A DNA stretch of 64,000 bases from a bacterium (GTDB lineage Bacteria > Patescibacteriota > Minisyncoccia > Minisyncoccales > GWA2-46-15). The notes under the pieces were generated by a model, which was not told the origin of the DNA, did not search any database, and saw only the letters and a list, made by a program, of their open reading frames with translations. This document shows positions 26,244-44,596 of this stretch, piece after piece. A program made the translations under genes and the position numbers. The stretch's first letter is position 1. Every line of letters starts with the position of its first letter. Location of the stretch: contig JAUYCZ010000028.1 in assembly GCA_030704795.1 (NCBI GenBank), forward strand, positions 83,202-147,201, given 5' to 3'.

Positions 26244-26258
26244 ATATTTTAGCAGGGA

Positions 26259-26334: not shown

Positions 26335-26392
26335 GCGTCGATGGCGCTAGCACTGAGCGAGTGGTGAGTTTATCGAACCACGAGTCGAAGTG

Positions 26393-27627: not shown

Positions 27628-29093
27628 TGGAATTATCTGATCTGACCCTGAAAAAAGCGCGGGCCGGTCTGGAAAACAAGGATTTTTCGGCCAAAGAATT
27701 GGTTTCGGCTACCCTGGAAAGAATCCAAAAACTGGATCCAAAAATCTCGGCCTTCCTGACCGTTTGCCCCGAATCAGCCTTAAAACAGGCGGCGGAGACG
27801 GATGAACTGATCGCCCGGAGCCAAAAACTCAAGGCCTTGAGCGGCATCCCTTTTTCAGCCAAAGACGTCTTCTCGACGCAGGGAATTAAAACGACGGCGG
27901 CCTCGAGAATCCTGGAGAACTATATCCCCGTCTATGACGCCACGGCCATTAAAAAACTCCGGGAGGCTGGCGCGATTCTCATCGGCAAAACCAATCACGA
28001 CGCTTTTGGTTTCGGCTCCTCGACAGAAAACTCGGACTTCCAGGTCACTCATAACCCCTGGAACTTAAATAAAGTGCCGGGTGGGTCTTCCGGTGGATCG
28101 GCCGCGGCCGTGGCCAGCGGCATGGGAGTCTTCTCCCTGGCTGAAGACACGGGCGGCTCAATCAGGCAACCGGCTTGTTTTTGCGGCGTCACCGGACTCA
28201 AAGTAACCTATGGCCTGGTTTCGAGATACGGCGTGATCGCTTACGGATCTTCGCTGGATACCATCGGCGTCATCACTCCGTCCGTGGAGGACGCCGCCTT
28301 TCTCCTGGGAATAATTGCCGGCCCGGACCCGCTTGACGCCACGACCATGCCAAACCCGATTCCTGATTATCTTGAATCCCTCAACCAGGGAATAAAGGGC
28401 TTGAGAATCGGCCTTCCCAAAGAGTATTTCATTGAGGGCATTGATCCAGAAGTAAAGCAGTCTTTAGACGAAGCTGTAAAAAAGTTCGAGAAGTTAGGAG
28501 CCAAAACAGAGTCGGTTTCTCTGCCCCACACTCCCGACGCCATTCCGGCTTACTATCTTTCTGGCATCAGCGAAGTCAGCGCCAACCTAGCCCGTTATGA
28601 CGGGGTCAGATTCGGCTATTCTAGTCCAGAAGCCCGAGAACTGGAAGATCTTTATCTCGAATCGCGAGCCAAAGGTTTTGGTCCCGAAGTCAAACGCCGG
28701 ATCATGCTGGGAACCTATGCCTTATCGGCGGGCTATTACGATGCTTTCTATAAGAAAGCGCAGCAAGTTCGCTATCTGATAAAACAAGATTTTGATCGGG
28801 TTTTCCAAAAAGTCGATCTGCTCCTCGCTCCGGTCTCCCCTTTCCCGCCCTTTGGGATCGGCGAAAAAGCCGAAGACCCGTTGCAGATGTGGCTAGCCGA
28901 CATTTTCACTGTCACCATCAACCCGGCCGGGGTGCCAGGCCTGGCCCTGCCCTGCGGCTTTACTAAAAACAATCTGCCCATCGGCCTGCAACTGATCGGT
29001 CCGCAACTCTCTGAAGGCGTTCTCCTGAAAGCCGGCCACGCCTATCAAAGCCAGACCGACTGGCATAAACGGAGACCTTCATTATCAGCATAA
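27627..29093 (+). CDS. gatA: Asp/Glu-tRNA amidotransferase subunit A
   Basis: Amidase signature GGSSGGSAAAVA. Confidence 0.95.
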   Translation: MELSDLTLKKARAGLENKDFSAKELVSATLERIQKLDPKISAFLTVCPESALKQAAETDELIARSQKLKALSGIPFSAKDVFSTQGIKTTAASRILENYIPVYDATAIKKLREAGAILIGKTNHDAFGFGSSTENSDFQVTHNPWNLNKVPGGSSGGSAAAVASGMGVFSLAEDTGGSIRQPACFCGVTGLKVTYGLVSRYGVIAYGSSLDTIGVITPSVEDAAFLLGIIAGPDPLDATTMPNPIPDYLESLNQGIKGLRIGLPKEYFIEGIDPEVKQSLDEAVKKFEKLGAKTESVSLPHTPDAIPAYYLSGISEVSANLARYDGVRFGYSSPEARELEDLYLESRAKGFGPEVKRRIMLGTYALSAGYYDAFYKKAQQVRYLIKQDFDRVFQKVDLLLAPVSPFPPFGIGEKAEDPLQMWLADIFTVTINPAGVPGLALPCGFTKNNLPIGLQLIGPQLSEGVLLKAGHAYQSQTDWHKRRPSLSA

Positions 29094-29108
29094 ATCAGTA
29101 TTAATCAG
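29084..29108. repeat. three direct ATCAG motifs with exact 10-bp phasing (starts 29084, 29094, 29104)
   Basis: Spans the gatA stop and the asnS-like start. The motif context (ATAAATCAG / ATTAATCAG) matches the arrays in the ribosomal operon. Confidence 0.6.
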
Positions 29109-29109
29109 C

Positions 29110-30468
29110 GTGAACACAGAATTCTTAATCAAAGATGCCAAAAATTTCGTAAACCAGAATGTTACCGTCCGGGGCTGGGTTTTTAACAAACGCTCTTCCG
29201 GCTCGATCATCTTCCTGCAGATCCGGGACGGCTCCGGCTTCATCCAAACCACGGTTTCCAAGAAGGATGTGCCAGCCGAAGTCTTCGGCCAAGCCCACGA
29301 AATCACCGACGAATCTTCAATCGTCCTGACTGGCACAATTAAGGCAGAACCAAGGTCTCCCTACGGTTTCGAGATCCAGGCCAAAGATCTGAAGATCATC
29401 TCTCTGGCCCAGGCCGAGTTTCCGATCGCGGCCAAAGAACACGGCATCGATTTTCTCCTTTCCTGGCGCCATTTGTGGCTGAGGTCTCCCCGGCAATGGG
29501 CCATCTTGAGAATCCGCAGCCGGATGATGAACGCCATTAACGATTTTCTGCAAAAAGAAGGTTATTTGCGGATTGATTCCCCGATCTTGACGCCTTCGGC
29601 CTGCGAAGGCACGACGACGCTTTTTCCGGTGCCTTATCTGCCGGCCTGGCCGGATGGTGACAACCAAACCGTGCCTTCCTGGCTCAATCCGGATCAAACC
29701 AAGCCCTACGCCTTTCTTTCTCAGTCGGGTCAGCTCTACCTGGAAGCCGCCATCGCCGCCCACCGAAAGGTCTATGATTTCGGCCCCACTTTCCGGGCCG
29801 AAAAAAGTAAAACCAAAAGGCATCTGACCGAATTCTGGATGATGGACGCGGAAGCCGCCTTCATGGATTTTGAAGAACTGCTCGGATTCGAAGAAAAAAT
29901 GATCTGTCACCTCATCCAAGACGTCCTGGACAATTGCCGGGCAGAACTCCAGGTTTTGGAAAGAGACGTCAAGCCCTTGGAGAAAATACAGCCTCCTTTC
30001 TTGAGGCTGACCTACGAAGAAACGCTAAAGAAACTGAAAGAGTTGGGATCGGACATCCAGGACGGCGAAGACCTGGGCAACGACGATGAGACGACTCTAA
30101 TGACCCACTTTGAAAAACCTCTCTTTATCACCCGCTTCCCCTCGGCCTTCAAGGCTTTTTACTTCAAGAGAGACAAGGAAAAGGAAAATCTGACCCTCTC
30201 CAACGATCTGCTGGCAAGCGAAGGCTATGGCGAGATCGTGGGCGGCGGACAAAGGGAAGACGATTACGAAATCCTCTTAAAAAGATTCAGGGAAGCCGGC
30301 CTGAATGAAAATGATTACGGCTGGTATCTCGACCTGCGGAAATACGGCTCTGTTCCCCATTCTGGCTTTGGCCTGGGATTAGAAAGATTGCTTGCCTGGA
30401 TCTGTAAATTAGAACACATCCGGGAAGCCATCCCCTTCCCTAGAACCATTTATCGCTTCACCCCTTAA
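29110..30468 (+). CDS. asnS: class IIb aminoacyl-tRNA synthetase, AsnRS-like (Asn/Asp specificity not resolved)
   Basis: Has an OB anticodon-binding domain (VTVRGWVFNKRSSGSIIFLQIRDGSG), FRAEKSKTKRHLTEFWMMDAEAAF (the EFWM pattern favours AsnRS) and GFGLGLERL. Confidence 0.8.
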   Translation: MNTEFLIKDAKNFVNQNVTVRGWVFNKRSSGSIIFLQIRDGSGFIQTTVSKKDVPAEVFGQAHEITDESSIVLTGTIKAEPRSPYGFEIQAKDLKIISLAQAEFPIAAKEHGIDFLLSWRHLWLRSPRQWAILRIRSRMMNAINDFLQKEGYLRIDSPILTPSACEGTTTLFPVPYLPAWPDGDNQTVPSWLNPDQTKPYAFLSQSGQLYLEAAIAAHRKVYDFGPTFRAEKSKTKRHLTEFWMMDAEAAFMDFEELLGFEEKMICHLIQDVLDNCRAELQVLERDVKPLEKIQPPFLRLTYEETLKKLKELGSDIQDGEDLGNDDETTLMTHFEKPLFITRFPSAFKAFYFKRDKEKENLTLSNDLLASEGYGEIVGGGQREDDYEILLKRFREAGLNENDYGWYLDLRKYGSVPHSGFGLGLERLLAWICKLEHIREAIPFPRTIYRFTP

Positions 30469-30487
30469 TTCGAGCGTTAACGAGAAT
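30467..30487. repeat. half copy of the 47-nt intergenic repeat (AATTCGAGCGTTAACGAGAAT)
   Basis: Aligns to the right half of 20396-20443 and 24868-24914. It sits in the asnS-gatB spacer. Confidence 0.55.
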
Positions 30488-30488
30488 C

Positions 30489-31832
30489 ATGGAATTTAAA
30501 CCCGTTATTGGTCTGGAGATTCATGTCGAGCTGGCCACCCAGAGCAAAATGTTTTGCGGTTGCCCGGCTTATCACTTCGGCGTCGAGCCGAACACTCATT
30601 GTTGCCCGGTTTGTTTGGGACTGCCCGGGGCTTTACCCGTTCCCAATAAAAAAGCGATTGAGTGGACCATCCGGCTGGGATTGGCTTTAAACTGCCGGAT
30701 TTTAGAAGAATCAAAATTTGACCGGAAAAATTATTTCTATCCCGACTTGCCCAAGGGCTATCAGATATCACAATACGATCAACCTCTTTGCGTCCAGGGA
30801 AAAGTCATCCTAAAAGAGGGTCAGGAAATTCGTATCCGAAGGGTCCATCTGGAAGAAGATACGGGGAAATTGCTTCACACCGAGATTGATGGCGAAAAAT
30901 GCAGTCTGGTTGATTTTAATCGTTCGGGCGTGCCTCTGCTGGAAGTCGTCACCGAACCAGATTTCCGAAACAGCCAAGAGGTTGATGAATTCTTAAAGGA
31001 TCTCCAGAGAATGGTCCGGTATCTGGGTATTTCTGATGCCGATATGGAAAAAGGATCACTGCGGATTGAACCGAATATTTCGATGCGTGAAAACACAAAA
31101 CCCAAAATACAAATTCCAAACTACAAGGTGGAGGTAAAGAATATAAACTCATTTCGGTTTGTCAGAAAAGCGATTGAATATGAGACAAAAAGGCAGACTG
31201 AATTGTTGGAAAAAGGCGAAACGCCCTTACAGGAAACGCGCGGCTGGAACGAAGCCGAAAACAAAACCGTTTCTCAGAGAGAAAAAGAAGAAGCGCACGA
31301 TTATCGCTATTTTCCCGAGCCCGACATTCCGCCGCTGAACTTTACGCCGGAGGAAATAGCCGAGATCAAAAAACAAATCCCCGAATTGCCCGAAGAGAAA
31401 GAAAAAAGATTCATCAAAGAATTCAAACTCTCGCCCTATCAGGCCGGTCTTCTGATTGAAACCAAGAAATTGGCCGATTATTACGAAGAGGCCCTCAAGG
31501 TCAACGGTAAGATTGACGGCAGAAAGTACTCGAGTCCAAGCGAGATTGCCAACTGGCTGATCAATAGAAAGATTGACATTAAAACCACTTCTCCGGAAAA
31601 ACTGATTAAAGACGTCATCGCTTCCAAAGAGGTAATGTTGGTCAGTGAGGCGGAAATGTCCAGAATCATTGACGAGATCTTAACCGAAAATTCCCAAGCC
31701 GCGGCCGACTACAAAAAAGGCAAAACCGCCGTGCTCGGTTTTTTGATCGGCCAGGTCGTCAGAAAGATTGGTTCCCAGGCGGACCGACAAGAAATAACCA
31801 GAAGGTTGATCGAAAAATTAGGCGTTTTTTAA
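30489..31832 (+). CDS. gatB: Asp/Glu-tRNA amidotransferase subunit B
   Basis: Contains GLEIHVELAT..SKMFCGC and RIEPNIS. Confidence 0.95.
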   Translation: MEFKPVIGLEIHVELATQSKMFCGCPAYHFGVEPNTHCCPVCLGLPGALPVPNKKAIEWTIRLGLALNCRILEESKFDRKNYFYPDLPKGYQISQYDQPLCVQGKVILKEGQEIRIRRVHLEEDTGKLLHTEIDGEKCSLVDFNRSGVPLLEVVTEPDFRNSQEVDEFLKDLQRMVRYLGISDADMEKGSLRIEPNISMRENTKPKIQIPNYKVEVKNINSFRFVRKAIEYETKRQTELLEKGETPLQETRGWNEAENKTVSQREKEEAHDYRYFPEPDIPPLNFTPEEIAEIKKQIPELPEEKEKRFIKEFKLSPYQAGLLIETKKLADYYEEALKVNGKIDGRKYSSPSEIANWLINRKIDIKTTSPEKLIKDVIASKEVMLVSEAEMSRIIDEILTENSQAAADYKKGKTAVLGFLIGQVVRKIGSQADRQEITRRLIEKLGVF

Positions 31833-32899
31833 TTCAATGGTTCTAATCCTTCGGTCTCTACCAACACCTCGGCTAGATCATCAAGATTCTCCAAAACCAT
31901 GCCCGCGCCCCGGGCCACGGCCGTCATGGGATCTTCAACCACTTGAGTCTTGATCTTTGTCTCTCTGGCAATTAAGGTATCTAGTCCGCGCAGCAAAGAC
32001 CCGCCGCCGGATAGCCAAATGCCCTCGGCCATGATATCGGCCAAGAGCTCGGGCGGCGTCTCTTCGATGGTTGTTTTGATGGTGTTAATAATCTGTTTAA
32101 CTGACTTTTCCAGGGCATGGCGGGTATCTTCTTCGGTAATGATAATTTCTTCGGGCAAGCCCGTTACCAGGTTTCGGCCCCGCAAAGGCGCGGCCCTTTT
32201 TTCTTTGTCTTTTTGAGGATAGGCTGAACCAATGGCAATTTTTATCTCTTCGGCCGTCTGTTCTCCGATCAAAAGCTTGAATTCTTCCTGGGCAAAGTGA
32301 ATGATGTCCTCGTTGAGTTTATCGCCGGCGATTCTTAAACTGCGAGCGATGACGACGCCGCCCAAAGAGATGACGGCCACTTCGGTTGTTCCTCCGCCGA
32401 TATCAACAATAAAGTTGCCGCTCGCTTCCTGAACTTCAAGCCGGGCCCCGATGGCCGCCGCCATCGGCTCTTCAATCAGAAAAACCTGTCCGGCGCCGGC
32501 GTTGCGCGCCGCGTCTTTGACGGCCTTCTTCTCTACTTCGGTTACCCCCCAAGGAATACCAATAATCACTCTCGGCCGGATGCCGAAATGGAATTTTTCT
32601 CTTTGAACCTTGTCGATAAAATAGCGCAACATTTGTTCGGTCACCTCAAAGTCAGAAATGACGCCTTTAACCAAAGGCCGAGTCGCCACAATGTGACTCG
32701 GCGTGCGACCAACCATTTTTTTAGCCTCTTCGCCAATCGCCAAAATGCGACCCGTTTTCTGATTAATGGCCACGACCGAAGGCTCCGTCATAACAATCCC
32801 CTTCCCTCGGACATAAACTAAAGAGTTGGCCGTACCCAGGTCAATGGCAATGTCTTGAGAAAACCCGCGCAAGATTTTTTCCCAAGTTTTTTTAATCAT
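31829..32899 (-). CDS. mreB: rod-shape protein MreB (actin-like ATPase), paralog 1
   Basis: Contains IAIDLGTANSLVYV, DIGGGTTEVAVISLGG and LSGGGSLLRGL. Confidence 0.9.
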   Translation of the reverse strand: MIKKTWEKILRGFSQDIAIDLGTANSLVYVRGKGIVMTEPSVVAINQKTGRILAIGEEAKKMVGRTPSHIVATRPLVKGVISDFEVTEQMLRYFIDKVQREKFHFGIRPRVIIGIPWGVTEVEKKAVKDAARNAGAGQVFLIEEPMAAAIGARLEVQEASGNFIVDIGGGTTEVAVISLGGVVIARSLRIAGDKLNEDIIHFAQEEFKLLIGEQTAEEIKIAIGSAYPQKDKEKRAAPLRGRNLVTGLPEEIIITEEDTRHALEKSVKQIINTIKTTIEETPPELLADIMAEGIWLSGGGSLLRGLDTLIARETKIKTQVVEDPMTAVARGAGMVLENLDDLAEVLVETEGLEPLN

Positions 32900-34613
32900 A
32901 TTTTATAATTTGACTTTGCGACTTAATTCTAGCTAAAGACTCGCCAACGGGAACAAGCTCAACTCGGTTTTCACCTCGATTCTTAAATTCAAACGATTTC
33001 TGAGCTAAGCTTTTCTCGCTGACCACCACTCTTAAAGGGATGCCGATCAAGTCCGCATCGGCAAATTTTTCACCGGGGGTTTTATCCGGCCGATCGTCAA
33101 ACAAAACCTCAGTCCCCTGCTCTTGTAATTGAGAATAAAGTTTTTCCGCCGCGACTTTGATTTTTTCATCCGTTCCCAATGGCAAAAAATGAACCAGGAA
33201 AGGCGCGACTGTCTCGGGCCAAATAATGCCCTTCTCGTCATGATATTTTTCCACCATCGCCGCCATGGTTCGGCCCAGACCAATGCCATAACAGCCCATA
33301 TAATAAGGTTTTTCTTTGCCCTCTTCGTCAATAAAATTAGATCCTTTCATCAGATGGGTATAATGATAGCCTAGTTGAAAGATATTGCCGACTTCAATCC
33401 CCCGATTAGCTTTTAATTTTTGCTTGCCGTCCGGAGCCAAATAACCCGCTTGAGCCTGGGCAATGTCGCCCTCAAGGAAAGGTTTGTAATCACGGCCGAT
33501 GTTCACATTCAGCAGATCACGGTATTTTTTATTGGCGCCGGTATAAGCGTTTCTGATCGTCCTTAAAGAATTATCGGCGACCACTTTTACTTTTTTGGAG
33601 AGGTTAACCGGAGAAATGAATCCCGGCCAAGAGCCAATGTTTTTTATTTCTTTTTCCGTGGCGTGGCGTAAAGTTAAGGATTTAGTCAAGCGCAAAAGTT
33701 TGGTTTCGTTAACGTCTAAATCCCCCCGGATGACGGCCAAGATCATCTCGTTTTTTTCATTGACCATCATCAAGTCTTTCATCTGCTGAAAAGGCGGCAA
33801 ATGATGAAATTTCACTCCGTCTTCCATGGTCGGTCCCCTTTTGGCTGTCACCTCTTTTAAGGGTAAAATCTTTTCTTGGCTGTTTTTATCTTGAAGATAA
33901 AACCGAGCCATTTCTTCGTGGGCGGCATATTTTCCGTCCTCGGAAACCAAATACTTGCTTTCCCCGACCTCGGAGGGAAAGACGAACTCGTGGCAGTATT
34001 CTCCGCCGATGTAGCCGTTGTCGGCCTCAATGATGACGGTTTCCAGGCCGAGCCGGTCAAAAATCCGTTTATAGGTCTGCCGCATTAACTCGTAAGTTTT
34101 CTTGAACTCGGCTTCGTTCCGGTCGAAAGAATAGGCGTCTTTCATGACGAACTCTTTCACGCGCAAAAGGCCGCCCCGGGGACGCATTTCGTCCCTGAAT
34201 TTAGTCGAGAATTGATAAAGATTAAACGGCAGGTCTTTGTAAGAGAGTTTGAATTTCCTGATCAGATCAACAAACATTTCTTCGGCCGTGCCCCCTAAGG
34301 CAAATTCCGCTTCATTGCGGTCCTTAACTTTCATTAACTCAAAGGCGGTGGTTTTGGTACGATTTGTCTCTTCCCACAACTGCAAAGGATGCAAAACTGG
34401 CGCCAGCATTTCCTGACCCCCTACCCGATCCATTTCTTCTTTGATGATCTGTTTGATTCTCTCGTGAACGCGCCAGCCCAGCGGCAGAAAATAATAACGG
34501 CCGGCGGCGCTTTCTCTGATAAAACCGGCTCTCAATAAAAGCCGGTGGCTGATGGCTTGAGCCTCTTTCGGGGCTTCTCTTAAAGTTTTGCCGAAAAGGT
34601 TTGATTGCCTCAT
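32892..34613 (-). CDS. proS: prolyl-tRNA synthetase (bacterial type with insertion/editing domain)
   Basis: Contains MRQSNLFGKTLREAPKEA..., FRDEMRPRGGLLRVKEF and GCYGIGLGR. Confidence 0.95.
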   Translation of the reverse strand: MRQSNLFGKTLREAPKEAQAISHRLLLRAGFIRESAAGRYYFLPLGWRVHERIKQIIKEEMDRVGGQEMLAPVLHPLQLWEETNRTKTTAFELMKVKDRNEAEFALGGTAEEMFVDLIRKFKLSYKDLPFNLYQFSTKFRDEMRPRGGLLRVKEFVMKDAYSFDRNEAEFKKTYELMRQTYKRIFDRLGLETVIIEADNGYIGGEYCHEFVFPSEVGESKYLVSEDGKYAAHEEMARFYLQDKNSQEKILPLKEVTAKRGPTMEDGVKFHHLPPFQQMKDLMMVNEKNEMILAVIRGDLDVNETKLLRLTKSLTLRHATEKEIKNIGSWPGFISPVNLSKKVKVVADNSLRTIRNAYTGANKKYRDLLNVNIGRDYKPFLEGDIAQAQAGYLAPDGKQKLKANRGIEVGNIFQLGYHYTHLMKGSNFIDEEGKEKPYYMGCYGIGLGRTMAAMVEKYHDEKGIIWPETVAPFLVHFLPLGTDEKIKVAAEKLYSQLQEQGTEVLFDDRPDKTPGEKFADADLIGIPLRVVVSEKSLAQKSFEFKNRGENRVELVPVGESLARIKSQSQIIKYD

Positions 34614-34692
34614 ATTTGTTTAGTTTACTTTAATTTATTTGAAAAAGCAAAGACGGTTTTCTGGTCGGTCTCCTCTACCAAATACGCTAAAT

Positions 34693-35508
34693 TTAATGTA
34701 AAAGACGAAGTTCTTTTGCTCTTTTTACTCCGGCGCGTATGGCTTTGAAAAAAACATCGCCAAATTTTAACTTTTCCAACACGGCGAAAATGGCCTCGGT
34801 AACGCCACCCTTTGAAATAACGGCGGCGCGCAATTCCCCGGCAGATTTCTTTGAATTCTTTAAAAGCTCGGCGCTGCCAATCACGGTCTGAACAGCTAAT
34901 ATTCTTACTAACTCATTTTTCAACCCTAGTTTCCTGGCGGTTATTTCAAGGAGCTCGACAAGATAAAAAATATAGGCGGGCCCGCTTCCCGAGATGACCG
35001 TAATTTTGTCTAATAAGCCCTCATCGTCAATGAAGTATTCCCTTCCTAGGCCGGCGAGGATTATTTTTATCAACTTCCGGTCATGTTTTGAAACCTCGCT
35101 ACTTGCGACCCAACAAGACATAGACATACCTATCGTAGCGCAAAGGTTAGGCATGACTCTGACAATGGGTTGCTTCTCTCCAATCAATTTTTTGATTGTC
35201 TTTATTTCCACGCCCGCCGCTATCGATACAACTAATTGTTTTTTCGATAGGCTTTCTTTTATTTCTGACAAAACGATGGGCACGATATCGGGTTTTACCG
35301 CCAATATAACGATATCGACGCGTTGAGTTGATTTTTTGTTGTCGTTTGAAATTTTTACATCCAGTTTTTTCACTTCTTGCAATCTCTCAGGTGACGGATC
35401 GGTTACGGTAATATTTTTACCCGAAATAATGCCATTTTGAACCAAGCCGCGAGTGATCGCGCTGCCCATATTTCCCGCGCCAATGATAGTAATTTTTTTA
35501 CCTTTCAT
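34693..35508 (-). CDS. proC: pyrroline-5-carboxylate reductase
   Basis: IIGAGNMGSAI Rossmann motif and VISKGGVTEA C-terminal motif. Confidence 0.9.
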   Translation of the reverse strand: MKGKKITIIGAGNMGSAITRGLVQNGIISGKNITVTDPSPERLQEVKKLDVKISNDNKKSTQRVDIVILAVKPDIVPIVLSEIKESLSKKQLVVSIAAGVEIKTIKKLIGEKQPIVRVMPNLCATIGMSMSCWVASSEVSKHDRKLIKIILAGLGREYFIDDEGLLDKITVISGSGPAYIFYLVELLEITARKLGLKNELVRILAVQTVIGSAELLKNSKKSAGELRAAVISKGGVTEAIFAVLEKLKFGDVFFKAIRAGVKRAKELRLLH

Positions 35509-36716
35509 AAATTTGGATTTTCTAAAACCTTCTTAATTATCTTGAATGCCGAATCAATCTCTCCCTTTTTAATTATCAACGGGGGAGCAAAACGGATCAC
35601 GTCCTCGTGGGTTTCTTTGCACAAAAGAAATTCGGTCATTAAAGCCTCGCAGAAACGTCGCGCTCCCCCCGCTTCTTTATGTAGTTCAATCCCAATAAGT
35701 AATCCCTTTCCTCTAATTTCTTTAATCCATTTACTTTGTAGAGTTTTGAGTTTGCTCAAAAAATATCTGCCCAATTCCGCAGACCTTTCCACTAGATTTT
35801 CTTTTACGATTACTCGTAAAGATGCTCGGGCTATTGCTGAGCCAAGCGGATTTCCTCCAAATGTGCTGCCGTGATCGCCAGGAGTTATAACCTCAAAGAT
35901 CGATCTTGAAGCCAGAACCGCCGAAACGGGATAGAATCCACCACCCAAAGCTTTTCCTACGACGAGCAAGTCTGGTTTTGCGTTATAATCGTGTTCATAA
36001 GCAAATAATTTTCCCGTTCTCCCTAGACCAGTTTGGATTTCATCGAGCATAAAGAGTACATTATTTTTTCGACAAATATTGGCCACGCCGGTCAAATACC
36101 CTTTATCAGGAATGATAATCCCGCCTTCAGCCTGTATAGGTTCTAAAAGTACAGCAACCGTATTGGGACCAATGGCCTCTTTTATCGCTTTTAAGTTGTT
36201 AAACTTAATAATTCTAAATCCTTTTGTATAAGGTCCGAAGCCGTCACGATACTGTTTTTCGGTAGAAAAGCTAATTATAGAAATTGTCCGGCCATGAAAA
36301 TTATTTTGACAGACAATAATTTCCGCTTTACCGCCCTTAACTCCTTTTTTGTAGTATCCCCACTTGCGAGCAACTTTAATGGCAGTTTCGACGGCTTCGG
36401 CCCCAGTATTCATTGGCAGCGCCATTTCAAAGCTGGTCAATTTACATAGATCTTTAGCAAACAACCCAAGCTGATTGTTATAAAACGCTCGTGAAGTTAG
36501 AGTAATTTTATTTAACTGTTTCTTAATTGCTCGAATAATTTTCTCATGAGTATGTCCCTGGTTAAGCGCGGAATATGCGCTTAAAAAATCCATGTATTTT
36601 TTCCCGCTCGTGTCATAAACCCAAATACCATGACCACGGCTAAGGACAACATCCAAAGGGTGATAATTGTGCGCACAGTACTTATTTACGGTCTGTATTA
36701 ATATGTTTTTATTCAT
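35505..36716 (-). CDS. rocD: ornithine aminotransferase (class III PLP aminotransferase)
   Basis: NYHPLDVVLSRGHGIWVYDTSGKKYMDFLSAYSALNQGH closely resembles the RocD/OAT N-terminus. Also has DEIQTGLGRTG. Confidence 0.85.
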   Translation of the reverse strand: MNKNILIQTVNKYCAHNYHPLDVVLSRGHGIWVYDTSGKKYMDFLSAYSALNQGHTHEKIIRAIKKQLNKITLTSRAFYNNQLGLFAKDLCKLTSFEMALPMNTGAEAVETAIKVARKWGYYKKGVKGGKAEIIVCQNNFHGRTISIISFSTEKQYRDGFGPYTKGFRIIKFNNLKAIKEAIGPNTVAVLLEPIQAEGGIIIPDKGYLTGVANICRKNNVLFMLDEIQTGLGRTGKLFAYEHDYNAKPDLLVVGKALGGGFYPVSAVLASRSIFEVITPGDHGSTFGGNPLGSAIARASLRVIVKENLVERSAELGRYFLSKLKTLQSKWIKEIRGKGLLIGIELHKEAGGARRFCEALMTEFLLCKETHEDVIRFAPPLIIKKGEIDSAFKIIKKVLENPNL

Positions 36717-36745
36717 ATTTTTTCTTTAATTTTATCCCACAAAAC

Positions 36746-36794
36746 AAAAAACCTCGTCGCTGCCATCCCATTTCTAGGGATAGCAAGGACGAGG
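36746..36794 (-). terminator. T-box expression-platform terminator (stem 36752-36794, U-run 36746-36751)
   Basis: CCTCGTCCTTGCTATCCC-TAGAAAT-GGGATGGCAGCGACGAGG followed by TTTTTT. Its 5' arm contains CCTTGCT, which alternatively pairs with the T-box. Confidence 0.75.
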
Positions 36795-37047
36795 ATTCTT
36801 ACTTCGACAAGCTCAGTATGGTGTATGGTGAGCCTGCCGAACCACGCGGTACCACCTTGCTCCTACCACAACATCGCTGTTGTGGTCTTATTAACTGACT
36901 TCAGCTTTAGCTGGCATCAGCGTCCCTCCGCCGGTTGGCGGATTACGGTCGGGCTTCCGGCATGGCTTATCGCCAGCGGCTCCGGGGCGGGTTCCCCTTC
37001 AATAAACTCAGGGTACTATTCCCCTTCAAAGCCTTTGTCTATTTTGT
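36746..37047 (-). promoter_or_regulatory. T-box riboswitch leader, specifier CCC (Pro), upstream of rocD-proC-proS
   Basis: All elements were hand-folded: K-turn GGC-UUU-GA-A-GGGG / CCCC-G-GA-GCC; specifier loop AAUAGUA / GAA-CCC-G (codon at 36989-36991); Stem III at 36865-36886; T-box AGCAAGG-UGGUACC-GCG (core 36845-36858); antiterminator A1 partner CCUUGCU. Confidence 0.8.
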
Positions 37048-37053
37048 ATTTTA

Positions 37054-37082
37054 TACATACTCCGATTAATAATTCCTGTCAA
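37054..37082 (-). promoter_or_regulatory. candidate sigma70-like promoter of the T-box leader (TTGACA-17 nt-TATGTA)
   Basis: Consensus -35 at 37082-37077 and -10 at 37059-37054, with spacing counted on the sequence. Confidence 0.5.
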
Positions 37083-37097
37083 GGGTTTATACGATCG

Positions 37098-37135
37098 TGA
37101 CGTCTTATCTCTGCTATAGCAATGGTAAGACGTCA
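37098..37135. repeat. inverted repeat TGACGTCTTA-18 nt-TAAGACGTCA whose loop carries CTGCTATAGCAATGG (third copy of the ATTGCTATAGCAAT-type palindrome)
   Basis: The 10-bp arms are exact reverse complements. It lies 16 nt upstream of the T-box promoter -35. Confidence 0.7.
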
Positions 37136-37191
37136 TCATAATCTAGTTTAGAGATAGATAATTCGCGATCTAGAATAATTATTTGATATCT

Positions 37192-38274
37192 TTAAAGTAA
37201 TCCTCTGAAGTTTCTAATATCTTTAATGGTGACAAAAACCATCAAAATTATTAATAAGGCGAAAAAGACGGTGGTGATCCTCTCCTCAACCTGGCGGGGA
37301 ACCGGCTTTTTTCTGACGGCTTCAATGCCCAAGAAAAGAAGCTTACCCCCGTCAAAAGCGGGAATGGGCAGAAGATTCAGAATGGCCACATTAATGGAAA
37401 GAAAGCCGATCATTTGCAGAAAATAACTCAGGCCCATTTCAATACCCTGACTCAAAATACCGACGATGCCCACTGGACCCATCAGTTCCAATCCCGAAGG
37501 AGCCCCTTGAAAAATCCGGGCCAGGCTTTGGCCGTAGGCGGAAATAATCATCGCCGTCATCTCAAAAGTGGCCTTAATTCCCTGAAACCAGGCCAGATAC
37601 CAGGGATAGCTCTTGAGACCGGTTCTGACCAGGGAAACTCCCAAAGGAGCTTGACCGGCGGGCGGCGAAAGGCGCGGAACCGCGCTCAATTCAAAAGTCT
37701 GACCGCCTCTCTTGATAGTCAAGACTACTTCCTGACCCTTGTTGTCGCTGATAAAATCTTGTAATTCTTTTACCTGGTTAATATTTTGAGGCCTTGATTC
37801 AAGGCCTTGAGCCATCAAAACAACGTCGCCCACTTTTAGGCCGGCGACTTGGGCCGGACTGTCAGGAGAAATAGCGCTGATCTGGACTTTTAAATCGGCG
37901 AAGCCGGTTTCGGCGTCATCAACAATGGTTGGGGAGCCGACCATAAAAACAATGGAAAATAAAACCGCGCCGACCAGCCAAAAAACAAGAGCGCCGTTAA
38001 AAATAATTAAAGCCCTCTGCCAAAGAGGCTTGTTGGTAAAAGACGAAGGGCTGTCGTCGGCTTCTTCCGGTATCCGGACAAAAGCGCCAAAGGGCAGGAG
38101 ATTAATCGAATAAAGGGTCCCCCGAAACTTCTTTCCGAAGAGCTTGGGCGGATAACCAAGGCCGAATTCCTCAACCTTGACCCCAAATTTCTTAGCGGTG
38201 AAAAAATGGCCCAGCTCATGCAGGCTGACCAAGATGAGCAAGCTCGTCAAAGCAATTAAAATAGTGAAAAACAT
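37192..38274 (-). CDS. rseP: RseP-type site-2 (M50) zinc metalloprotease with PDZ domain
   Basis: Has the HELGHF motif in TM1, a PDZ (GLKVGDVVL) and the NLLPIPAFDGG motif. Confidence 0.85.
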   Translation of the reverse strand: MFFTILIALTSLLILVSLHELGHFFTAKKFGVKVEEFGLGYPPKLFGKKFRGTLYSINLLPFGAFVRIPEEADDSPSSFTNKPLWQRALIIFNGALVFWLVGAVLFSIVFMVGSPTIVDDAETGFADLKVQISAISPDSPAQVAGLKVGDVVLMAQGLESRPQNINQVKELQDFISDNKGQEVVLTIKRGGQTFELSAVPRLSPPAGQAPLGVSLVRTGLKSYPWYLAWFQGIKATFEMTAMIISAYGQSLARIFQGAPSGLELMGPVGIVGILSQGIEMGLSYFLQMIGFLSINVAILNLLPIPAFDGGKLLFLGIEAVRKKPVPRQVEERITTVFFALLIILMVFVTIKDIRNFRGLL

Positions 38275-38841: not shown

Positions 38842-39810
38842 TTAAAACAACCCGAGGATTGAATTTTCTATGGCCAGTCTCGGATTGACGTTACTTCTCG
38901 ACAAAAGATAATTCGTCTTGTCTAAGGAGAAAAGCAGGCTCTTTAATTTTGAGGCCGGGATACTCTCGGTTTTCCCAAATAACTTTTGCTGATTCTGATT
39001 CAGGTTTTCCTTTTTAACAATGCCCATTTTAACCAGAAAAAGTAAGCGGGTAAAATCCAGCCAAACTTCCAGGTTCTCTGGTAAGACGTCACTTTCTTTA
39101 GTTAAGACCTCTATTTCATGAAACCAAAAGACTAAATCTTGACTCAGCATTCCGGCAAATTTTTTGATTCTTTCTTCTTCTTTCTTTAGATCATCCGGGT
39201 TTAACAATCGCCTCGCCTTTAAAGGCTTGCCCGAAGAAAGATGGCTGATCCGATCGGCCAAAGATTCATCGGCCCCCGCGGCCAGTAAAAGATTAATAAT
39301 TTCTTGGCTTGACAAGGGGTGGAATTTGATTTCCTGGAGCCGAGAAATAATGGTTGGAACTAATAACTCCGGGTAGTCGCTGACGAGAATCAGAACCGTC
39401 TGTCCCCTCGGCTCCTCCAGGGTTTTCAGGAGGGCGGACTGGGCCGCCAAGGAAAAAGTCTGAAACTGGTCAATGATGGCGACTTTAAACTTTCCCAACC
39501 CGGGTTTCAGGCTCAACCAATCGCCCAGATGGCGGATCAAGTTAATTTCTGTTTCTTCTATTTTATCGGTATTTTCGATTAAAAGGAAATCGGGATGGCA
39601 ACTTTTCTCCATTTCTCGGCAAGAAGAGCACTGCCGGCAAGGCTTTTTGTCAAAATCCTCACTCCGACAATTTAATAATCGGGCGAATTCCTGGGCGATT
39701 TCTTTTTTCCCCAACAATCTTTTGCCGGAAAACAAGTAAGCGTGGCTCGTTTTTCCCAGCTGAACGGATTTTCTCAGAAACTGCCATTGTTTTCGGTGAC
39801 CCCACATCAT
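38842..39810 (-). CDS. holB: DNA polymerase III delta' subunit
   Basis: Contains HAYLFSG, a C..C..CxxC zinc module, HPDF and the sensor motif. Confidence 0.85.
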   Translation of the reverse strand: MMWGHRKQWQFLRKSVQLGKTSHAYLFSGKRLLGKKEIAQEFARLLNCRSEDFDKKPCRQCSSCREMEKSCHPDFLLIENTDKIEETEINLIRHLGDWLSLKPGLGKFKVAIIDQFQTFSLAAQSALLKTLEEPRGQTVLILVSDYPELLVPTIISRLQEIKFHPLSSQEIINLLLAAGADESLADRISHLSSGKPLKARRLLNPDDLKKEEERIKKFAGMLSQDLVFWFHEIEVLTKESDVLPENLEVWLDFTRLLFLVKMGIVKKENLNQNQQKLFGKTESIPASKLKSLLFSLDKTNYLLSRSNVNPRLAIENSILGLF

Positions 39811-40817
39811 TTTTTGGTCATTAAGCTTTTCTTATAGACTTCCAGGTTTTCCGCCACCACGCCCGTGCCTCGGGCCACGCACAAAAGGGGCTCGTCCGCC
39901 ACTAAACAAGGAACGCCGATCGATTGCTCGATTAATTGATCGAAATTGCGCAACAAGGCTCCCCCACCAGATAAAACAATGCCCTTATCAATGACATCAG
40001 CCGATAATTCTGGCGGCGTCTCTCTCAAGACTTGTTTAATGGTCTGAATGATTTCCATCAGAACATCGCTGATGGCAAAGCAAACTTCATTGGAGGAAAT
40101 CTTAACCGTTTTGGGCAGACCCAAAATGAGGTCTCGGCCTCGGATCTGCATGAGTCTTTCTTCCTTCTCGGGCAGAGCCGTGGCAATATTAATCTTAATT
40201 TCTTCGGCGGTTTGCTCGCCAATCGCCAGATTGTGTTTTTCCTTGATGTAATTAGCAATGGCTTCGTCAAGCTTGTCTCCGGCCATCCTGATTGACCCCC
40301 AGTTAACGATTCCGCCCAGGGAGATGACGGCCATTTCAGAAGTGCCGCCGCCGATGTCAACAATCATACTCCCCGAAGAAGTATTGATCGGGATGCCGGC
40401 GCCAATGGCGGCCAGAATCGGTTCTTTGGCGGTAAAAACAGCTTTAGCTCCGGCGTTGGTTCCGGCCTCAACCACCGCCCTTCTTTCGGTTGAAGTAACG
40501 CCGGCCGGCACGCCGATAATCAGTTCTGGCTTAAAAAACCGGGCCATTTGACTGGTCTTGTCAATAAAATATCTCAACATGGCCTGAGTCACCCTGAAAT
40601 CAGCGATGACTCCGTCTTTGAGAGGTCGGTAAACCCTCAGAGTGTCTGGGGTCTTGCCGAGCATTTCCTTAGCTTCACGACCAATCGCTAAGATCCGGTT
40701 TTCCAACAGAGAAACGGCCACGACTGACGGTTCTTGCAAAATCACCCCTTTAGGCGGAGCAAAAACTACCGAGTTACAGGTGCCTAAATCAATGCCAATT
40801 TTTCTAACCAAAAACAT
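39807..40817 (-). CDS. mreB: MreB-like actin ATPase, paralog 2
   Basis: Contains IGIDLGTCNSVVF, DIGGGTSEMAVISLGG and LSGGGALLRN. I prefer the ATG at 40817, because the longer ORF-track start adds 46 non-homologous residues and collides with the divergent gene. Confidence 0.85.
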   Translation of the reverse strand: MFLVRKIGIDLGTCNSVVFAPPKGVILQEPSVVAVSLLENRILAIGREAKEMLGKTPDTLRVYRPLKDGVIADFRVTQAMLRYFIDKTSQMARFFKPELIIGVPAGVTSTERRAVVEAGTNAGAKAVFTAKEPILAAIGAGIPINTSSGSMIVDIGGGTSEMAVISLGGIVNWGSIRMAGDKLDEAIANYIKEKHNLAIGEQTAEEIKINIATALPEKEERLMQIRGRDLILGLPKTVKISSNEVCFAISDVLMEIIQTIKQVLRETPPELSADVIDKGIVLSGGGALLRNFDQLIEQSIGVPCLVADEPLLCVARGTGVVAENLEVYKKSLMTKK

Positions 40818-40888
40818 TGTCTTTGAATTATTCTTTAATCTTAAATAAAAAACTGGAAGATAGCAAGTTTTTAAGTTAAAATGAAAGA

Positions 40889-42307
40889 ATGACCAAACGA
40901 ACACGCACCTTCCTGTTTTTCGCCTGCTCAGCTGCTTTCTTAATTGTTGCGCCAACGGTTCTTCTTTATAATCAGGGCTATCGTTTTGACCTGAACACCT
41001 ACCGAATAACCAAAACCGGCGCTTTTTACTTCGGGATCTCTCCCCGAGGCAGCGATGTTTTCATTAACGGCCAATTAAAAAAGAGGACTGATTTCTTCTT
41101 TGGTTCCGCCCTGATTGAAGAGTTGCTGCCCGGAAACTACTTAGTTGAGATAAAAAAGGAGGGGTATTTCCCCTGGAAGAAAAACTTGGAAGTGAAAGCC
41201 ATGGCCGTCACCGAAGAAAACAATGTTGTTCTTTTTCCGGAAAAAACCGACTTCCAGATTTTCGCCAAGGGAGTGGAAAGATTTTTCCCTTCCCCTTCCG
41301 GGAAAAAAGCGCTCTTGCAGAAAAAAGACTCCCAGGGACAATATTTAACCCTCTTTGATTTTCAGAATAACATTGAAAAAGTCTTCGTCAGGGAAAAGGA
41401 TCTTTATAAAAAAAACGGAGCAGTTTTTTTTCTAGACCTCCAGTGGTCAGCCGATTCCCAAAAAATCCTGATGCGCTATGCCATTAATGAGCAAGAGAAG
41501 ATTTTTTGGGCCGACACTCAACAGAATCCGGCTAGCCCGGTTGCCCTAGATTTCCTCAAAGATTTTGAAAAGGTTGATTTTTCTCCTGACTCGCCCAACG
41601 GCCGCAAATTCCTCGGCCTTAAAGAACAAACTCTTTTTTCGGGCGACCTTGATTCTAAAAGAACCACAGAAATTTTGAATCATGTCTTGGCTTTTGGATC
41701 TCTCGAAGGGAAGATTTACCTTTTAGAAAACAGTGGGTTTGTCTTTCGGATTGATAGCTTAGCGGCGGCCGAAAAACAGAAATTAAACGATGTTCCCCTC
41801 GCCGTAAAAGACGAGGTCTCCTACGGGCTGGAGCTTTCTCCTTCGGGCCTCTTTCTCCGGGAGGCGGACAGCCTCTTTCTTCTCGCTGAAAGTCCCGAGT
41901 CCATTCGAGGGAACGAAAAAACCAAGTCTTTTGTCGAAATCTCTGAATCGATCAGAGACTTCAAAATTTCTCCAGACAAAGAAAAGCTGGCTTATTTTAA
42001 CAACTCTGAAATCTCAATCTATTTCCTCAAAGAAAGGGTGGAACAACCACAGAAAAAAGCAGGTGACCGGATCCTGTTGGCCCGGTTTTCCCAAAAAATC
42101 AGCCAGCTCTATTGGTTAAATAACGATTATTTAATCTTCGTGGTCGGTGACAAGATTAAAATCAGCGAGATTGACGACCGCGACCAACCCAACGTCGTTG
42201 AAATTGCCGAATTCAGGAGTCCGCAAATATTTTTTAAGAAGGATAACAAAAAAGCTTCGGTCCTAACCGAAAGCAACTTTCTCCTTTCGACAAATCTCTT
42301 ACCCTAG
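40889..42307 (+). CDS. membrane-anchored PEGA-domain protein with probable beta-propeller-like C-terminal region
   Basis: Has an N-terminal TM segment and a PEGA-like segment (DVFINGQ...LPGNYLVEIKKEGYFPWKKNLEV). It is divergent from mreB2. Confidence 0.6.
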   Translation: MTKRTRTFLFFACSAAFLIVAPTVLLYNQGYRFDLNTYRITKTGAFYFGISPRGSDVFINGQLKKRTDFFFGSALIEELLPGNYLVEIKKEGYFPWKKNLEVKAMAVTEENNVVLFPEKTDFQIFAKGVERFFPSPSGKKALLQKKDSQGQYLTLFDFQNNIEKVFVREKDLYKKNGAVFFLDLQWSADSQKILMRYAINEQEKIFWADTQQNPASPVALDFLKDFEKVDFSPDSPNGRKFLGLKEQTLFSGDLDSKRTTEILNHVLAFGSLEGKIYLLENSGFVFRIDSLAAAEKQKLNDVPLAVKDEVSYGLELSPSGLFLREADSLFLLAESPESIRGNEKTKSFVEISESIRDFKISPDKEKLAYFNNSEISIYFLKERVEQPQKKAGDRILLARFSQKISQLYWLNNDYLIFVVGDKIKISEIDDRDQPNVVEIAEFRSPQIFFKKDNKKASVLTESNFLLSTNLLP

Positions 42308-43476: not shown

Positions 43477-43827
43477 TCATTTAATTAACTCAATAATCGT
43501 CATCTCGGCCGCATCCGAGCGGCGCGGTCCTAATTTTAAAATCCTCAGATAGCCACCGGATCTTTGTTGGTACCTCGGCCCCAATTCCTTAATCAACTTT
43601 CTCACGACTCTGTTTGAAAAAAGTCCCGCCAGAGCCCTCTGAGAGCTGAGGTTTTGCTTCTTAGCTAAAGTGATGGCCTTCTCAACAAAAGGCGCCATTT
43701 CTTTCGCTTTGGCCCGGGTCGTCTTAATCCTCTCTTTTAAAACCAAGTTGGTAGCCAAAATCTTCAGCAATGCCCGACGCTGATCTCTTTTTCTGGATAG
43801 TTTTCGACCCTTTTTAAGCTTTCGCAT
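43477..43827 (-). CDS. rplQ: 50S ribosomal protein L17
   Basis: LSRKRDQRRALLKILATNLVLKERIKTT. Confidence 0.9.
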   Translation of the reverse strand: MRKLKKGRKLSRKRDQRRALLKILATNLVLKERIKTTRAKAKEMAPFVEKAITLAKKQNLSSQRALAGLFSNRVVRKLIKELGPRYQQRSGGYLRILKLGPRRSDAAEMTIIELIK

Positions 43828-44596
43828 TTCTGCTGGATTTCTTTGCTTTAACTGCTTTCTTTTTCGGTTTTATCTTTTTTTCTGTTTTTTTCTTGGCTTC
43901 CGGTTTTTCTTCAACGACCAAGCTTTGACTGACCAGCGAAAAATGGTCAACGAGAATTTGCGCCGCCCGGGAAACGGCTTCAGCCGGCGTAATCGTCCCA
44001 TCGGTCTCGACCTCGAGGCGCAGTTTGTCAAAATCGGTTCTTTCCCCCACGCGCATGTTTTCCACTTGATAGCCAACTTTCCTGACCGGAGTAAAAATGG
44101 CGTCAACCAGAATCTCGCCAATGGCTAACTTACCTCTTTTTCTTTTTTCCCGAGGCAAATAGCCAATCCCTTTTTCTACTTCAATCTCGATTTCCAAATC
44201 AGCTGATTTAGCCGTTAGGCTGGCCAGGTGCTCATCCTTATTGATCAGTTCCAGCTGGGAGGGCAGGCTAAAGTCTTTTCCTTTGACTTCTTTCTCTCCC
44301 TTGATTTTTAAAGTTGCTTTCTGGGGTTCTTCAGAAAATATCTTAAACCTCAATTTCTTCAAATTAAGCATGATCTGGATGACATCTTCGAGAACGCCCG
44401 GGATAGTCGAAAATTCATGGGATACACCCTTAATCTTCATCTTGGCCACGGCCGCCCCGGGCAAAGAAGAAAGCAAAACTCGTCTCAGGCTATTCCCTAC
44501 GGTGACGCCATAGCCCGGATAAAGGGCTTCTATCTCGAAGACGGCCTGGTTATCTTTTTCCGAAATAACTTTGGGTTTTAAAAACAAGGAGATCAT
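43814..44596 (-). CDS. rpoA: RNA polymerase alpha subunit, N-terminal domain only with Lys-rich tail (no alpha-CTD)
   Basis: Contains PGYGVTVGNSLRRVLLSSLPGAAV. It is only 260 aa, and after about residue 225 there is just EEKPEAKKKTEKKIKPKKKAVKAKK. Confidence 0.9.
   Translation of the reverse strand: MISLFLKPKVISEKDNQAVFEIEALYPGYGVTVGNSLRRVLLSSLPGAAVAKMKIKGVSHEFSTIPGVLEDVIQIMLNLKKLRFKIFSEEPQKATLKIKGEKEVKGKDFSLPSQLELINKDEHLASLTAKSADLEIEIEVEKGIGYLPREKRKRGKLAIGEILVDAIFTPVRKVGYQVENMRVGERTDFDKLRLEVETDGTITPAEAVSRAAQILVDHFSLVSQSLVVEEKPEAKKKTEKKIKPKKKAVKAKKSSRNAKA

Follow-up and report, generated by a model that had tools for sequence, protein, structure and literature searches.

A probable proline-specific T-box leader of reduced type upstream of rocD-proC-proS in a Parcubacteria-like genome and its relatives

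How does a bacterium with a reduced genome match the making of proline, and the charging of its tRNA, to demand? The question is raised by a 64,000-nt stretch of contig JAUYCZ010000028.1 (assembly GCA_030704795.1, positions 83,202 to 147,201), referred to below as the window, in which a noncoding gap of 475 nt on the minus strand separates rseP (37192-38274) from rocD, the first of a run of genes that continues with proC and proS. A first-pass annotation, made from the sequence alone, had placed in this gap a T-box riboswitch with a CCC (proline) specifier and a very short Stem I, in a genome resembling those of the Candidate Phyla Radiation (CPR). We followed up this proposal by model searches, folding, and comparison with related leaders. 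The element is very probably the 5' leader of rocD-proC-proS(-mreB) and a proline-specific T-box riboswitch of reduced type.

A proline specifier shared by related leaders

With permissive filters, the Rfam T-box model RF00230 gave a full-length match (model positions 1-219) at 36822-37038, with 36.9 bits and an E-value of 1.3e-6 in a search space of 601 nt (36600-37200), which becomes about 1e-4 once scaled to 64 kb. Standard annotation misses the leader because this score lies far below the gathering threshold of the model. The alignment nevertheless places the kink-turn (K-turn), the specifier loop, Stem IIA, Stem III, and the T-box sequence at high posterior probability. The leader (301 nt) folds better than its shuffles (z = -6.7), and its minimum free energy (MFE) fold includes the short Stem I, Stem III, and the terminator. 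The identity proposed by the first-pass annotation is borne out by the T-box sequence with its 7-nt bulge, the A1/A2 helices that compete with a terminator, the K-turn, an S-turn-type specifier loop, a IIA/B pseudoknot, and Stem III.

Related leaders were found in two ways. RocD led to GTDB species genomes (L001-L003, 80-82% identity) and to loci from a large protein collection (L081-L090, 92-69% identity), and metagenome contigs were retrieved by a DNA pattern consisting of the discriminator core CAAGGTGGTACCRCG, a gap of 3-33 nt, and then CCTCGTCCTTG. These rocD loci, among them L001-L003, L085, L086, and L088-L090, carry a weak T-box match (29-35 bits in the relatives) directly upstream of rocD, with two exceptions: in L087 the preceding gene abuts rocD and there is no leader, and L091 and L092 gave no T-box match. 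None was found upstream of rocD in 77 loci from other phyla. The discriminator-core pattern occurs in more than 120 metagenome stretches, and about 45 of the 80 loci listed match the family model over its full length. In total, at least about 50 related leaders were recovered. MAFFT misaligned the insertion-rich window leader and that of L081 when applied to all leaders, and a covariance model was used instead.

The strongest evidence that the CCC of the window is a working proline specifier is that codon and downstream gene agree across this family. With the register defined as the triplet followed by the last purine of the loop, the triplet at the same loop position in about 40 relatives is CCC, CCU, CCA, or CCG, all of them proline codons. 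The surrounding loop varies: UUCCCAG gives CCA, while UUUCCUG, CUUCCUA, AUUCCUA, and CAUCCUA give CCU, and L115, which has a longer Stem I, gives CCG (GAA-CCG-G). A leucine specifier (CUU) considered for L115 was rejected, as the whole leader shows the longer Stem I and the true 3' side of its loop. The downstream genes that could be identified are almost always proline-related, comprising rocD, proC, proB (glutamate 5-kinase), ornithine cyclodeaminases of both the classical and the NPN-dependent type, and proS, either alone or after tRNA_bind. The exception is L111, where a CCC leader is followed first by a GNAT acetyltransferase and then by proS; a few other downstream proteins have no Pfam match or are cut by the contig end. 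Leaders with other specifiers also occur, GUC+G before a confirmed valS (L125) and GCC+G before alaS. Taken together, the conserved proline triplets, their mostly proline-related downstream genes, and the GUC before valS support the proline specifier that the first-pass annotation had predicted.

A different register, for example ACC (Thr) or CCG, or a ligand other than tRNA-Pro, is extremely unlikely. Within GAACCCGCCCC several triplets overlap, and GGGG could pair with either of two CCC(C) runs, but the register accepted here is the sole one in which all leaders of proline genes have a proline codon (CCC+G, CCU+G/A, CCA+G, and CCG+G), and the same register yields GUC before valS. In L085 the loop has changed to UUCCCAG and the triplet is still synonymous in the accepted register. 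Further, the K-turn geometry dictates the GGGG/CCCC helix, which L162 and L163 have unchanged.

Two loci carry more than one leader. In L125, the Val leader stands back to back with a Pro leader (10085-10227, minus strand, and 10326-10473, plus strand). L101 has two leaders, at 5222-5409 and 8777-8947, both on the minus strand; one is a Pro leader before an NPN-type ornithine cyclodeaminase, and the other precedes chorismate mutase and probably has a UAC specifier.

Fold of the leader and covariation

The features of the leader and of the genes around it are collected in Table 1. Helices were judged on three alignments: the Microgenomates-type leaders together with L088; the window-type leaders, i.e., the window, L081, L162, and L163; and 41 leaders fitted to the family model. 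In the first, 97.4% of cells are paired, eight pairs have changed on both sides, and none of 500 shuffles is as good, with slid controls reaching 32-44%. The window-type alignment is 98.4% paired, with ten pairs changed on both sides and again no equal among 500 shuffles. Across the 41 leaders pairing holds in 96.7% of cells, compared with 32-45% when the 3' partners are slid, and both-side changes occur at 27 of 35 pairs. In these alignments covariation supports every predicted helix of the window fold, including the cap helix, the 3-bp IIA/B pairing, and the 9-bp Stem III. The first-pass annotation would have counted the lack of a significant model hit, together with a lack of conserved or covarying helices, against its reading; the gathering score is missed, but the helices are conserved and covary.

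Table 1. Positions of leader elements, promoter, and genes. All window features lie on the minus strand and are numbered by the forward strand of the window.
Feature	Position	Strand	Basis or remark
Stem I, short form (base helix, K-turn, GGGG/CCCC helix, specifier loop, capped helix)	36978..37033	-	RF00230 alignment, MFE fold, covariation in the window-type alignment
Stem I base helix	GGC 37031-37033 with GCC 36978-36980	-	
K-turn strands	UUUGAA 37025-37030 and GGA 36981-36983	-	aligned to T-box K-turn columns
Helix above K-turn	GGGG 37021-37024 with CCCC 36984-36987	-	
Specifier loop, 5' side AAUAGUA	37014..37020	-	AGUA is S-turn partner of 3' GAA; identical in L162, L163, L115; aligns to Rfam AGUA
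Specifier loop, 3' side GAA-CCC-G	36988..36994	-	codon CCC (Pro) 36989-36991; conserved purine G 36988
Cap hairpin CCCU, 11-nt loop, AGGG	36995..37013	-	replaces distal Stem I; no AG bulge or distal-loop platform
Mini Stem II UGGC-GAUAA-GCCA, 4 bp, GANRA pentaloop	36963..36975	-	covariation
Stem IIA CGG/CCG, loop AAGCCCGA	36946..36959	-	RF00230 alignment and window-type alignment; loop CCC 36951-36953 forms IIB
Inserted hairpin UCCGCC-AACC-GGCGGA, lineage-specific	36927..36942	-	between IIA and IIB 3' strand
IIB pseudoknot, 3' strand GGG	36924..36926	-	partner of CCC 36951-36953; CCC/GGG invariant in four window-type leaders
Linker hairpin CUGAU/GUCAG, inner helix CAGC/GCUG	36895..36920	-	between pseudoknot and Stem III
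Stem III, 9 bp, GCGA (GNRA) loop	36865..36886	-	5 of 9 pairs changed on both sides in the window-type alignment; model Stem III position
Antiterminator (A1, T-box bulge, A2)	36782..36861	-	RF00230 alignment, folding
A1, 7 bp	AGCAAGG 36855-36861 with CCUUGCU 36782-36788	-	
T-box bulge UGGUACC	36848-36854	-	UGGU complementary to tRNA 3' end ACCA
A2, 3 bp	GCG 36845-36847 with CGU 36789-36791	-	G-U at base
A2 loop insertion, 53-nt loop with 10-bp hairpin	36806-36838	-	absent from the first-pass annotation
Intrinsic terminator, 18-position stem, one C-C mismatch, then U6	36746..36794	-	stem 36752-36794, U6 36746-36751
Extra Stem I hairpin in L001 and L003	about 744-766 and 2816-2838		
Promoter -35 hexamer TTGACA	37077..37082	-	read from sequence; same spacing to the leader as the TTGACA-17-TATAAT-type promoters of relatives
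rocD, ornithine-oxo-acid transaminase	35505..36716	-	NCBIfam TIGR01885, 531.6 bits (cutoff 378.4); first regulated gene
proC, pyrroline-5-carboxylate reductase	34693..35508	-	NCBIfam TIGR00112, 238.1 bits (cutoff 196.75); 4-nt overlap with rocD
proS, bacterial-type prolyl-tRNA synthetase	32892..34613	-	NCBIfam NF006625, 651.4 bits (cutoff 558)
mreB	31829..32899	-	gene map; 8-nt overlap with proS end; next gene on opposite strand, convergent
Short AlaRS (605 aa) and RpoA (260 aa)	47866-49683, 43814-44596	-	signs of reduced genome

Within Stem I, all cells of the three helices are paired in the window-type alignment, with both-side changes in the base helix and the cap helix. The K-turn called by the first-pass annotation aligns, at the sequence level, to the K-turn columns of RF00230 with high posterior probability, and its layout of the specifier loop and position of the codon were correct; L162 and L163 share the internal loop AAUAGUA / GAA-CCC-G. 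It had also described nothing above this loop except a 4-bp helix and an 11-nt loop, lacking the platform that docks the tRNA elbow; in agreement, 42 of the 47 model positions for the distal part of Stem I are deleted in the RF00230 alignment. The cap helix has counterparts in L162 (UCUUUCG/CGAAAGA) and L163 (GCCA/UGGU), in which a helix is kept while its sequence and loop differ, so that no platform motif is conserved at this site. In most relatives Stem I is smaller still, being a 6-bp hairpin that presents the codon in a 7-nt terminal loop (UUUCCCG) with no helix above it, and in many Microgenomates-type relatives the K-turn is degenerate (GUUAA / AA). Judged by this comparison, the truncation of Stem I is real and conserved, and the window is not the extreme case.

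Some relatives show further variation in this domain. An extra small hairpin lies between the Stem I hairpin and the base helix, on the 3' strand, in L001, L003, L142, L126, and L151, and also in L137, L165, L124, and L155, turning the K-turn region into a three-way junction. In the leader of L164 (970-1244, plus strand) the Stem I hairpin loop is just 4 nt (CGCA), and the downstream protein has no Pfam match.

Downstream of Stem I, the first-pass annotation had drawn a long Stem II-like helix followed by a 9-bp Stem III. Stem III stands, with five of its pairs changed on both sides. The long helix, formed by CUGGCGAUAAG and GCUGAUGCCAG, does not: it is 81% paired in four sequences, a value equalled by 223 of 500 shuffles, and it clashes with covarying local hairpins. 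Three local elements take its place, namely a mini Stem II, Stem IIA, and a CUGAU/GUCAG hairpin. Across the 41 leaders, the 4-5 bp of Stem II are paired in 98.5% of cells and all five pairs have changed on both sides; a GANRA loop (C-GANRA-G) fits Stem II of 34 of them. The Val member of L125 retains a long Stem II with GAA...AGUA.

The partners of the IIB pseudoknot covary throughout the family over 3-5 bp, as GGA:UCC, GGAU:AUCC, GUCA:UGAC, GUUC:GAAC, UCUU:AAGA, CCU:AGG, CCC:GGG, and GAAGC:GCUUC. For the Microgenomates-type leaders, a first IIB candidate (GACAC with GUGUC) was discarded, being broken in L085 and having its GUGUC within the covarying hairpin GUGUGUCGU/ACGGAGCAC. The accepted pairing, GGA:UCC, lies about 9 nt downstream of the rejected site and fits both the family and the GUUC:GAAC variant of L088.

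Two hairpins in this region are specific to parts of the family. Only the window and L081, where it is longer, have the insertion between IIA and the IIB 3' strand; L162 and L163 lack it. The linker hairpin has invariant outer arms (CUGAUG...AGUCAG) and a varying inner part in all four window-type leaders and also occurs in L111; we know of no counterpart in the classical T-box scheme. Stem III is flanked by purine-rich sequence (AUAAG and AG in the window, AUGAG and AAAAA in L162), which is an inexact match to the published discriminator motif 5'-RRRxG-Stem III-AA-3' (PMC7583486).

The T-box core with its 7-nt bulge and the A1 and A2 helices are as the first-pass annotation described them, and every coordinate that it gave was confirmed. 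Compared with the 14-nt T-box consensus, AGGGUGGNACCGCG (PMC11297988), the window sequence AAGGUGGUACCGCG has one difference, at a position whose partner in A1 is U. Pairing of A1 and A2 holds in 41 of 41 family members, the sequence being preset by the DNA pattern for the loci fetched with it. The hairpin inserted in the A2 loop is missing from L081, and an unrelated hairpin occupies the same site in L163 (about 6990-7020). As even the closest relative, L081, is without the insertion, it is probably recent and dispensable.

Probable termination control, proposed tRNA sensing, and comparison with known T-boxes

The terminator and A1/A2 share CCUCGUCCUUGCU, and the antiterminator 3' strand CGU-CCUUGCU opens the 5' arm of the terminator, making the two structures exclusive. 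In ViennaRNA calculations, the terminator hairpin alone has -29.6 kcal/mol, and the 3' domain of the window has -55.6 kcal/mol with the terminator and -38.7 kcal/mol with the antiterminator enforced, a difference of about 17 kcal/mol. This calculated balance corresponds to the usual default-off arrangement, in which a ligand would be needed for the antiterminator to form. A simple terminator scan did not report the hairpin that ViennaRNA finds, probably owing to its internal mismatch. An equivalent hairpin with U6-U8 is present in nearly all relatives.

The U6 tract ends exactly where the first-pass annotation had put it, 29 nt before the ATG at 36716, and because of this distance transcription attenuation is the likely mode of control in the window. 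We also considered a mainly translational, or dual, T-box, in which the hairpin would sequester the ribosome-binding site as in actinobacterial ileS leaders, the sole class described so far with an ultrashort Stem I. In most relatives the terminator 3' arm ends in GGAGG or GACGAGG, with the U-tract (e.g., U7) running straight into AUG or GUG, and in L002 the AUG right after the U-tract is the true rocD start; such a hairpin might both end transcription and block access to the ribosome-binding site. The literature, moreover, pairs a short Stem I with translational control and reports that translational T-boxes typically carry an insertion at the top of A2, which the window also has (PMC7583486). 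However, a considerable distance separates the U-tract from the start codon in the window, L081, and L162, and the window hairpin contains neither a Shine-Dalgarno (SD) sequence nor any part of the region adjoining the ATG. L081 has its own AAGGA just before the ATG and outside the hairpin, and in nearly every family member the hairpin and the U6-U8 behind it make up a classic intrinsic terminator. We consider a mainly translational or dual switch improbable for the window leader.

With transcription attenuation as the likely mode, the leader would work as established for T-boxes, whose tRNA-charging mechanism has been described (PMC7583486). During transcription, the anticodon of tRNA-Pro (GGG expected) would pair with the CCC specifier. 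If the tRNA is uncharged, its 3' end ACCA would pair with UGGU in the bulge and stack on the discriminator, stabilizing the antiterminator, and RNA polymerase would read into the genes for making proline from ornithine and for charging tRNA-Pro. With charged tRNA, the antiterminator would not be stabilized, the terminator, more stable by about 17 kcal/mol, would form, and transcription would stop at 36746-36751. The UGGU of the window is complementary to a tRNA with A73. Bacterial tRNA-Pro carries A73.

The likeness to classical class I T-boxes (RF00230) is extensive. Shared are the K-turn, the S-turn specifier loop with a codon followed by a purine, the IIA/B pseudoknot with an F-box-like CCGUA, Stem III, the T-box sequence, the 7-nt bulge UGGN-ACC, A1/A2, and an exclusive terminator with U-tract. 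Proline-specific examples are known in the Bacillus proBA and proI leaders, which, as cited in PMC13198045, have a CCU specifier (Brill et al., 2011) and thus share, as far as that citation goes, a proline specifier upstream of proline biosynthesis genes. In comparison with them, the present family serves the ornithine route to proline (rocD and ornithine cyclodeaminases) besides proB, proC, and proS, and its hosts belong to the CPR/Patescibacteria rather than the Firmicutes. The leader lacks three features of the classical family. Its score is below the curated threshold; the distal Stem I platform has given way to a 4-bp capped helix in the window, and most relatives have nothing there; and in place of a canonical Stem II, a long helix with an S-turn, there is a 4-5 bp hairpin closed by a GANRA pentaloop.

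A platform-free Stem I is otherwise found in the ileS T-boxes with ultrashort or intermediate Stem I of M. tuberculosis, M. smegmatis, and N. farcinica (reviewed in PMC7583486). The present leaders share with these actinobacterial T-boxes decoding by K-turn, specifier, Stem II, and IIA/B, the presence of A2 insertions, and a IIB helix of about 3 bp (PMC11297988). They differ in specificity and host, being Pro leaders (also Val and Ala in relatives) of the CPR as opposed to Ile leaders of Actinobacteria. The ileS T-boxes, which were reportedly studied by Sherwood (2015), Battaglia (2019), and Suddala and Zhang (2019), sequester the SD sequence, whereas the window has an intrinsic terminator upstream of the start and no SD in its hairpin; the GGAGG next to the start codon in the hairpins of many relatives would make both control modes possible there. 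Further, in the ileS T-boxes the codon-anticodon helix is clamped by the S-turn purine string of a long and indispensable Stem II, in contrast to the 4-bp Stem II seen here. The glyQS T-boxes resemble the present RNA in the natural loss of a canonical module and in an all-G-C codon-anticodon helix (GGC:GCC there, CCC:GGG here), but they keep the long Stem I with its platform and do without Stem II and IIA/B, while the present RNA does the opposite, keeping IIA/B and a vestigial Stem II without the platform. Staphylococcal glyS T-boxes likewise have a lineage-specific insertion in the antiterminator/terminator domain, stem Sa (PMC9177973), which is unrelated in sequence to the extra hairpin at the apex of A2 in the window.

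Several points weigh against the reading of the leader as a working tRNA-Pro sensor. At the gathering score of RF00230 (93 bits) there is no match in the window, the best being the 36.9 bits given above. The elbow-docking distal platform is absent from the window Stem I, and no GAA/AGUA S-turn is recognizable in the mini Stem II. According to the literature, transcriptional T-boxes generally need the long Stem I elbow-binding platform and short-Stem-I T-boxes need an S-turn-bearing Stem II (PMC7583486), and shortening of Stem II abolished tRNA binding by the M. tuberculosis ileS T-box (PMC11297988). No tRNA-Pro was found in the 64-kb window, which has tRNA-Asp and two tRNA-Met only, or in the related loci. 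The -10 candidate of the leader promoter (TATGTA, 37054-37059, minus strand) is weak, and a simple promoter scan of the window did not list this site. Finally, the alignment of 41 leaders was fitted to the model, and A1/A2 of the pattern-derived loci L093-L172 add no independent support because the search pattern fixed those sequences.

The low Rfam score and the missing elements, together with the failure of the family model to find a second T-box within the 64-kb window, where thrS, pheST, aspS, and alaS are present, would also fit a decayed, non-functional remnant of a classical T-box after loss of the distal Stem I and Stem II. We regard this as highly improbable, since about 50 leaders, drawn from two or more CPR lineages whose housekeeping proteins are 29-39% identical, keep the architecture with compensatory changes, synonymous proline codons are kept at the specifier, the downstream genes are almost always proline-related, and the overlap of terminator and antiterminator is intact.

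If the leader is a functional proline T-box, how could it capture its tRNA in time with so little of the usual apparatus? Speculatively, three features may offset the missing elbow contact: a codon-anticodon helix made of G-C pairs throughout, the pentaloop of Stem II, and the hub formed by the pseudoknot. The GANRA pentaloop might dock in the manner of a GNRA loop. This idea of compensation is in line with the Val (GUC) member keeping a long Stem II with GAA...AGUA. In glycine T-boxes without Stem II, an all-G-C codon-anticodon helix (GGC:GCC) has likewise been offered as compensation (PMC7583486). A bolder proposal is that these leaders form a distinct CPR-wide T-box class with the smallest natural decoding module, making no elbow contact yet driving an intrinsic terminator; the module, which would read tRNA identity during transcription, would in most members be about 65 nt, consisting of the 6-bp hairpin with the codon in an anticodon-like loop of 7 nt, a 5-bp Stem II with a GNRA-like GANRA pentaloop replacing the S-turn clamp, and a pseudoknot of 3-4 bp. 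We put this joint claim forward tentatively, as possible but short of probable. Our literature search, incomplete in coverage so that an earlier description elsewhere is possible, returned no T-box reported in CPR/Patescibacteria; TBDB looked for short-Stem-I T-boxes only in Actinobacteria or among Rfam-model matches.

Genomic setting and meaning for CPR bacteria

Each of rocD, proC, and proS, named by the first-pass annotation as the operon behind the leader, scores above its curated NCBIfam cutoff. Most likely rocD-proC-proS-mreB is one transcription unit with mreB as its last gene; as mreB overlaps the end of proS and the next gene is convergent, it is probably part of the T-box-regulated transcript. 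A second mreB paralogue lies at 39807-40955 (minus strand), 7 kb upstream of the one adjoining proS. The gap of 79 nt between proC and proS (34614-34692, minus strand) contains a weak hairpin followed by UUUGCUUUUU, perhaps a processing site or an internal terminator of partial strength.

The assignment of the window to a CPR-like genome agrees with its GyrB, whose best named matches are in Candidatus Nealsonbacteria (85%), Parcubacteria, Patescibacteria, and Minisyncoccales. Judged by such protein matches, the window host is Parcubacteria-like and other family members are Microgenomates-like. The gene content of the window fits a reduced genome, with many translation genes and short forms of AlaRS and RpoA. 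A further sign of reduction is an aspS/asnS-type synthetase gene between gatA and gatB (27627-31832, plus strand). The window also has a cluster of tRNA-Met, tRNA-Met, and tRNA-Asp at 26169-26463 (minus strand) just upstream of pheS-pheT; one of the clustered tRNA-Met has a mismatched first acceptor pair in the Rfam alignment. Gammaproteobacteria, the origin given in the records of L001-L003, was rejected. Ribosomal protein S2 encoded by the syntenic contig L082 has its nearest named matches in Patescibacteria, Roizmanbacteria, and Microgenomates, and the Gammaproteobacterial label is probably mistaken. RocD of the window is about 80% identical to that of the Microgenomates-like L001-L003 and L082, compared with 44-46% for ProC and 29-39% for Frr, RseP, and HolB, which suggests that the leader-rocD unit has moved between CPR lineages or is unusually constrained.

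Gene regulation in CPR organisms is little known. By its conserved fold and codon, the window leader is a member of a sizeable, previously unannotated CPR family, which places T-box tRNA sensing in CPR/Patescibacteria, in Parcubacteria-like and Microgenomates-like genomes both. The curated Rfam threshold misses the whole family, although more than 120 metagenome stretches fit a single narrow DNA pattern. The combination of an ultrashort Stem I, a vestigial Stem II, and apparent transcription termination makes these leaders a natural experiment in T-box reduction and runs against published structure-function rules; if they do form a distinct CPR class, they would contradict the rules that a long Stem I platform is required in transcriptional T-boxes and an S-turn-bearing Stem II in those with a short Stem I. 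A tRNA-decoding module this small would also be of use for structural work and for engineered tRNA sensors. Because the leader fronts different proline routes in different genomes, whichever each one uses (rocD and proC, proB, two unrelated ornithine cyclodeaminases, or proS), it may be a mobile regulatory cassette, and in these reduced genomes proline metabolism appears to be regulated via tRNA charging.

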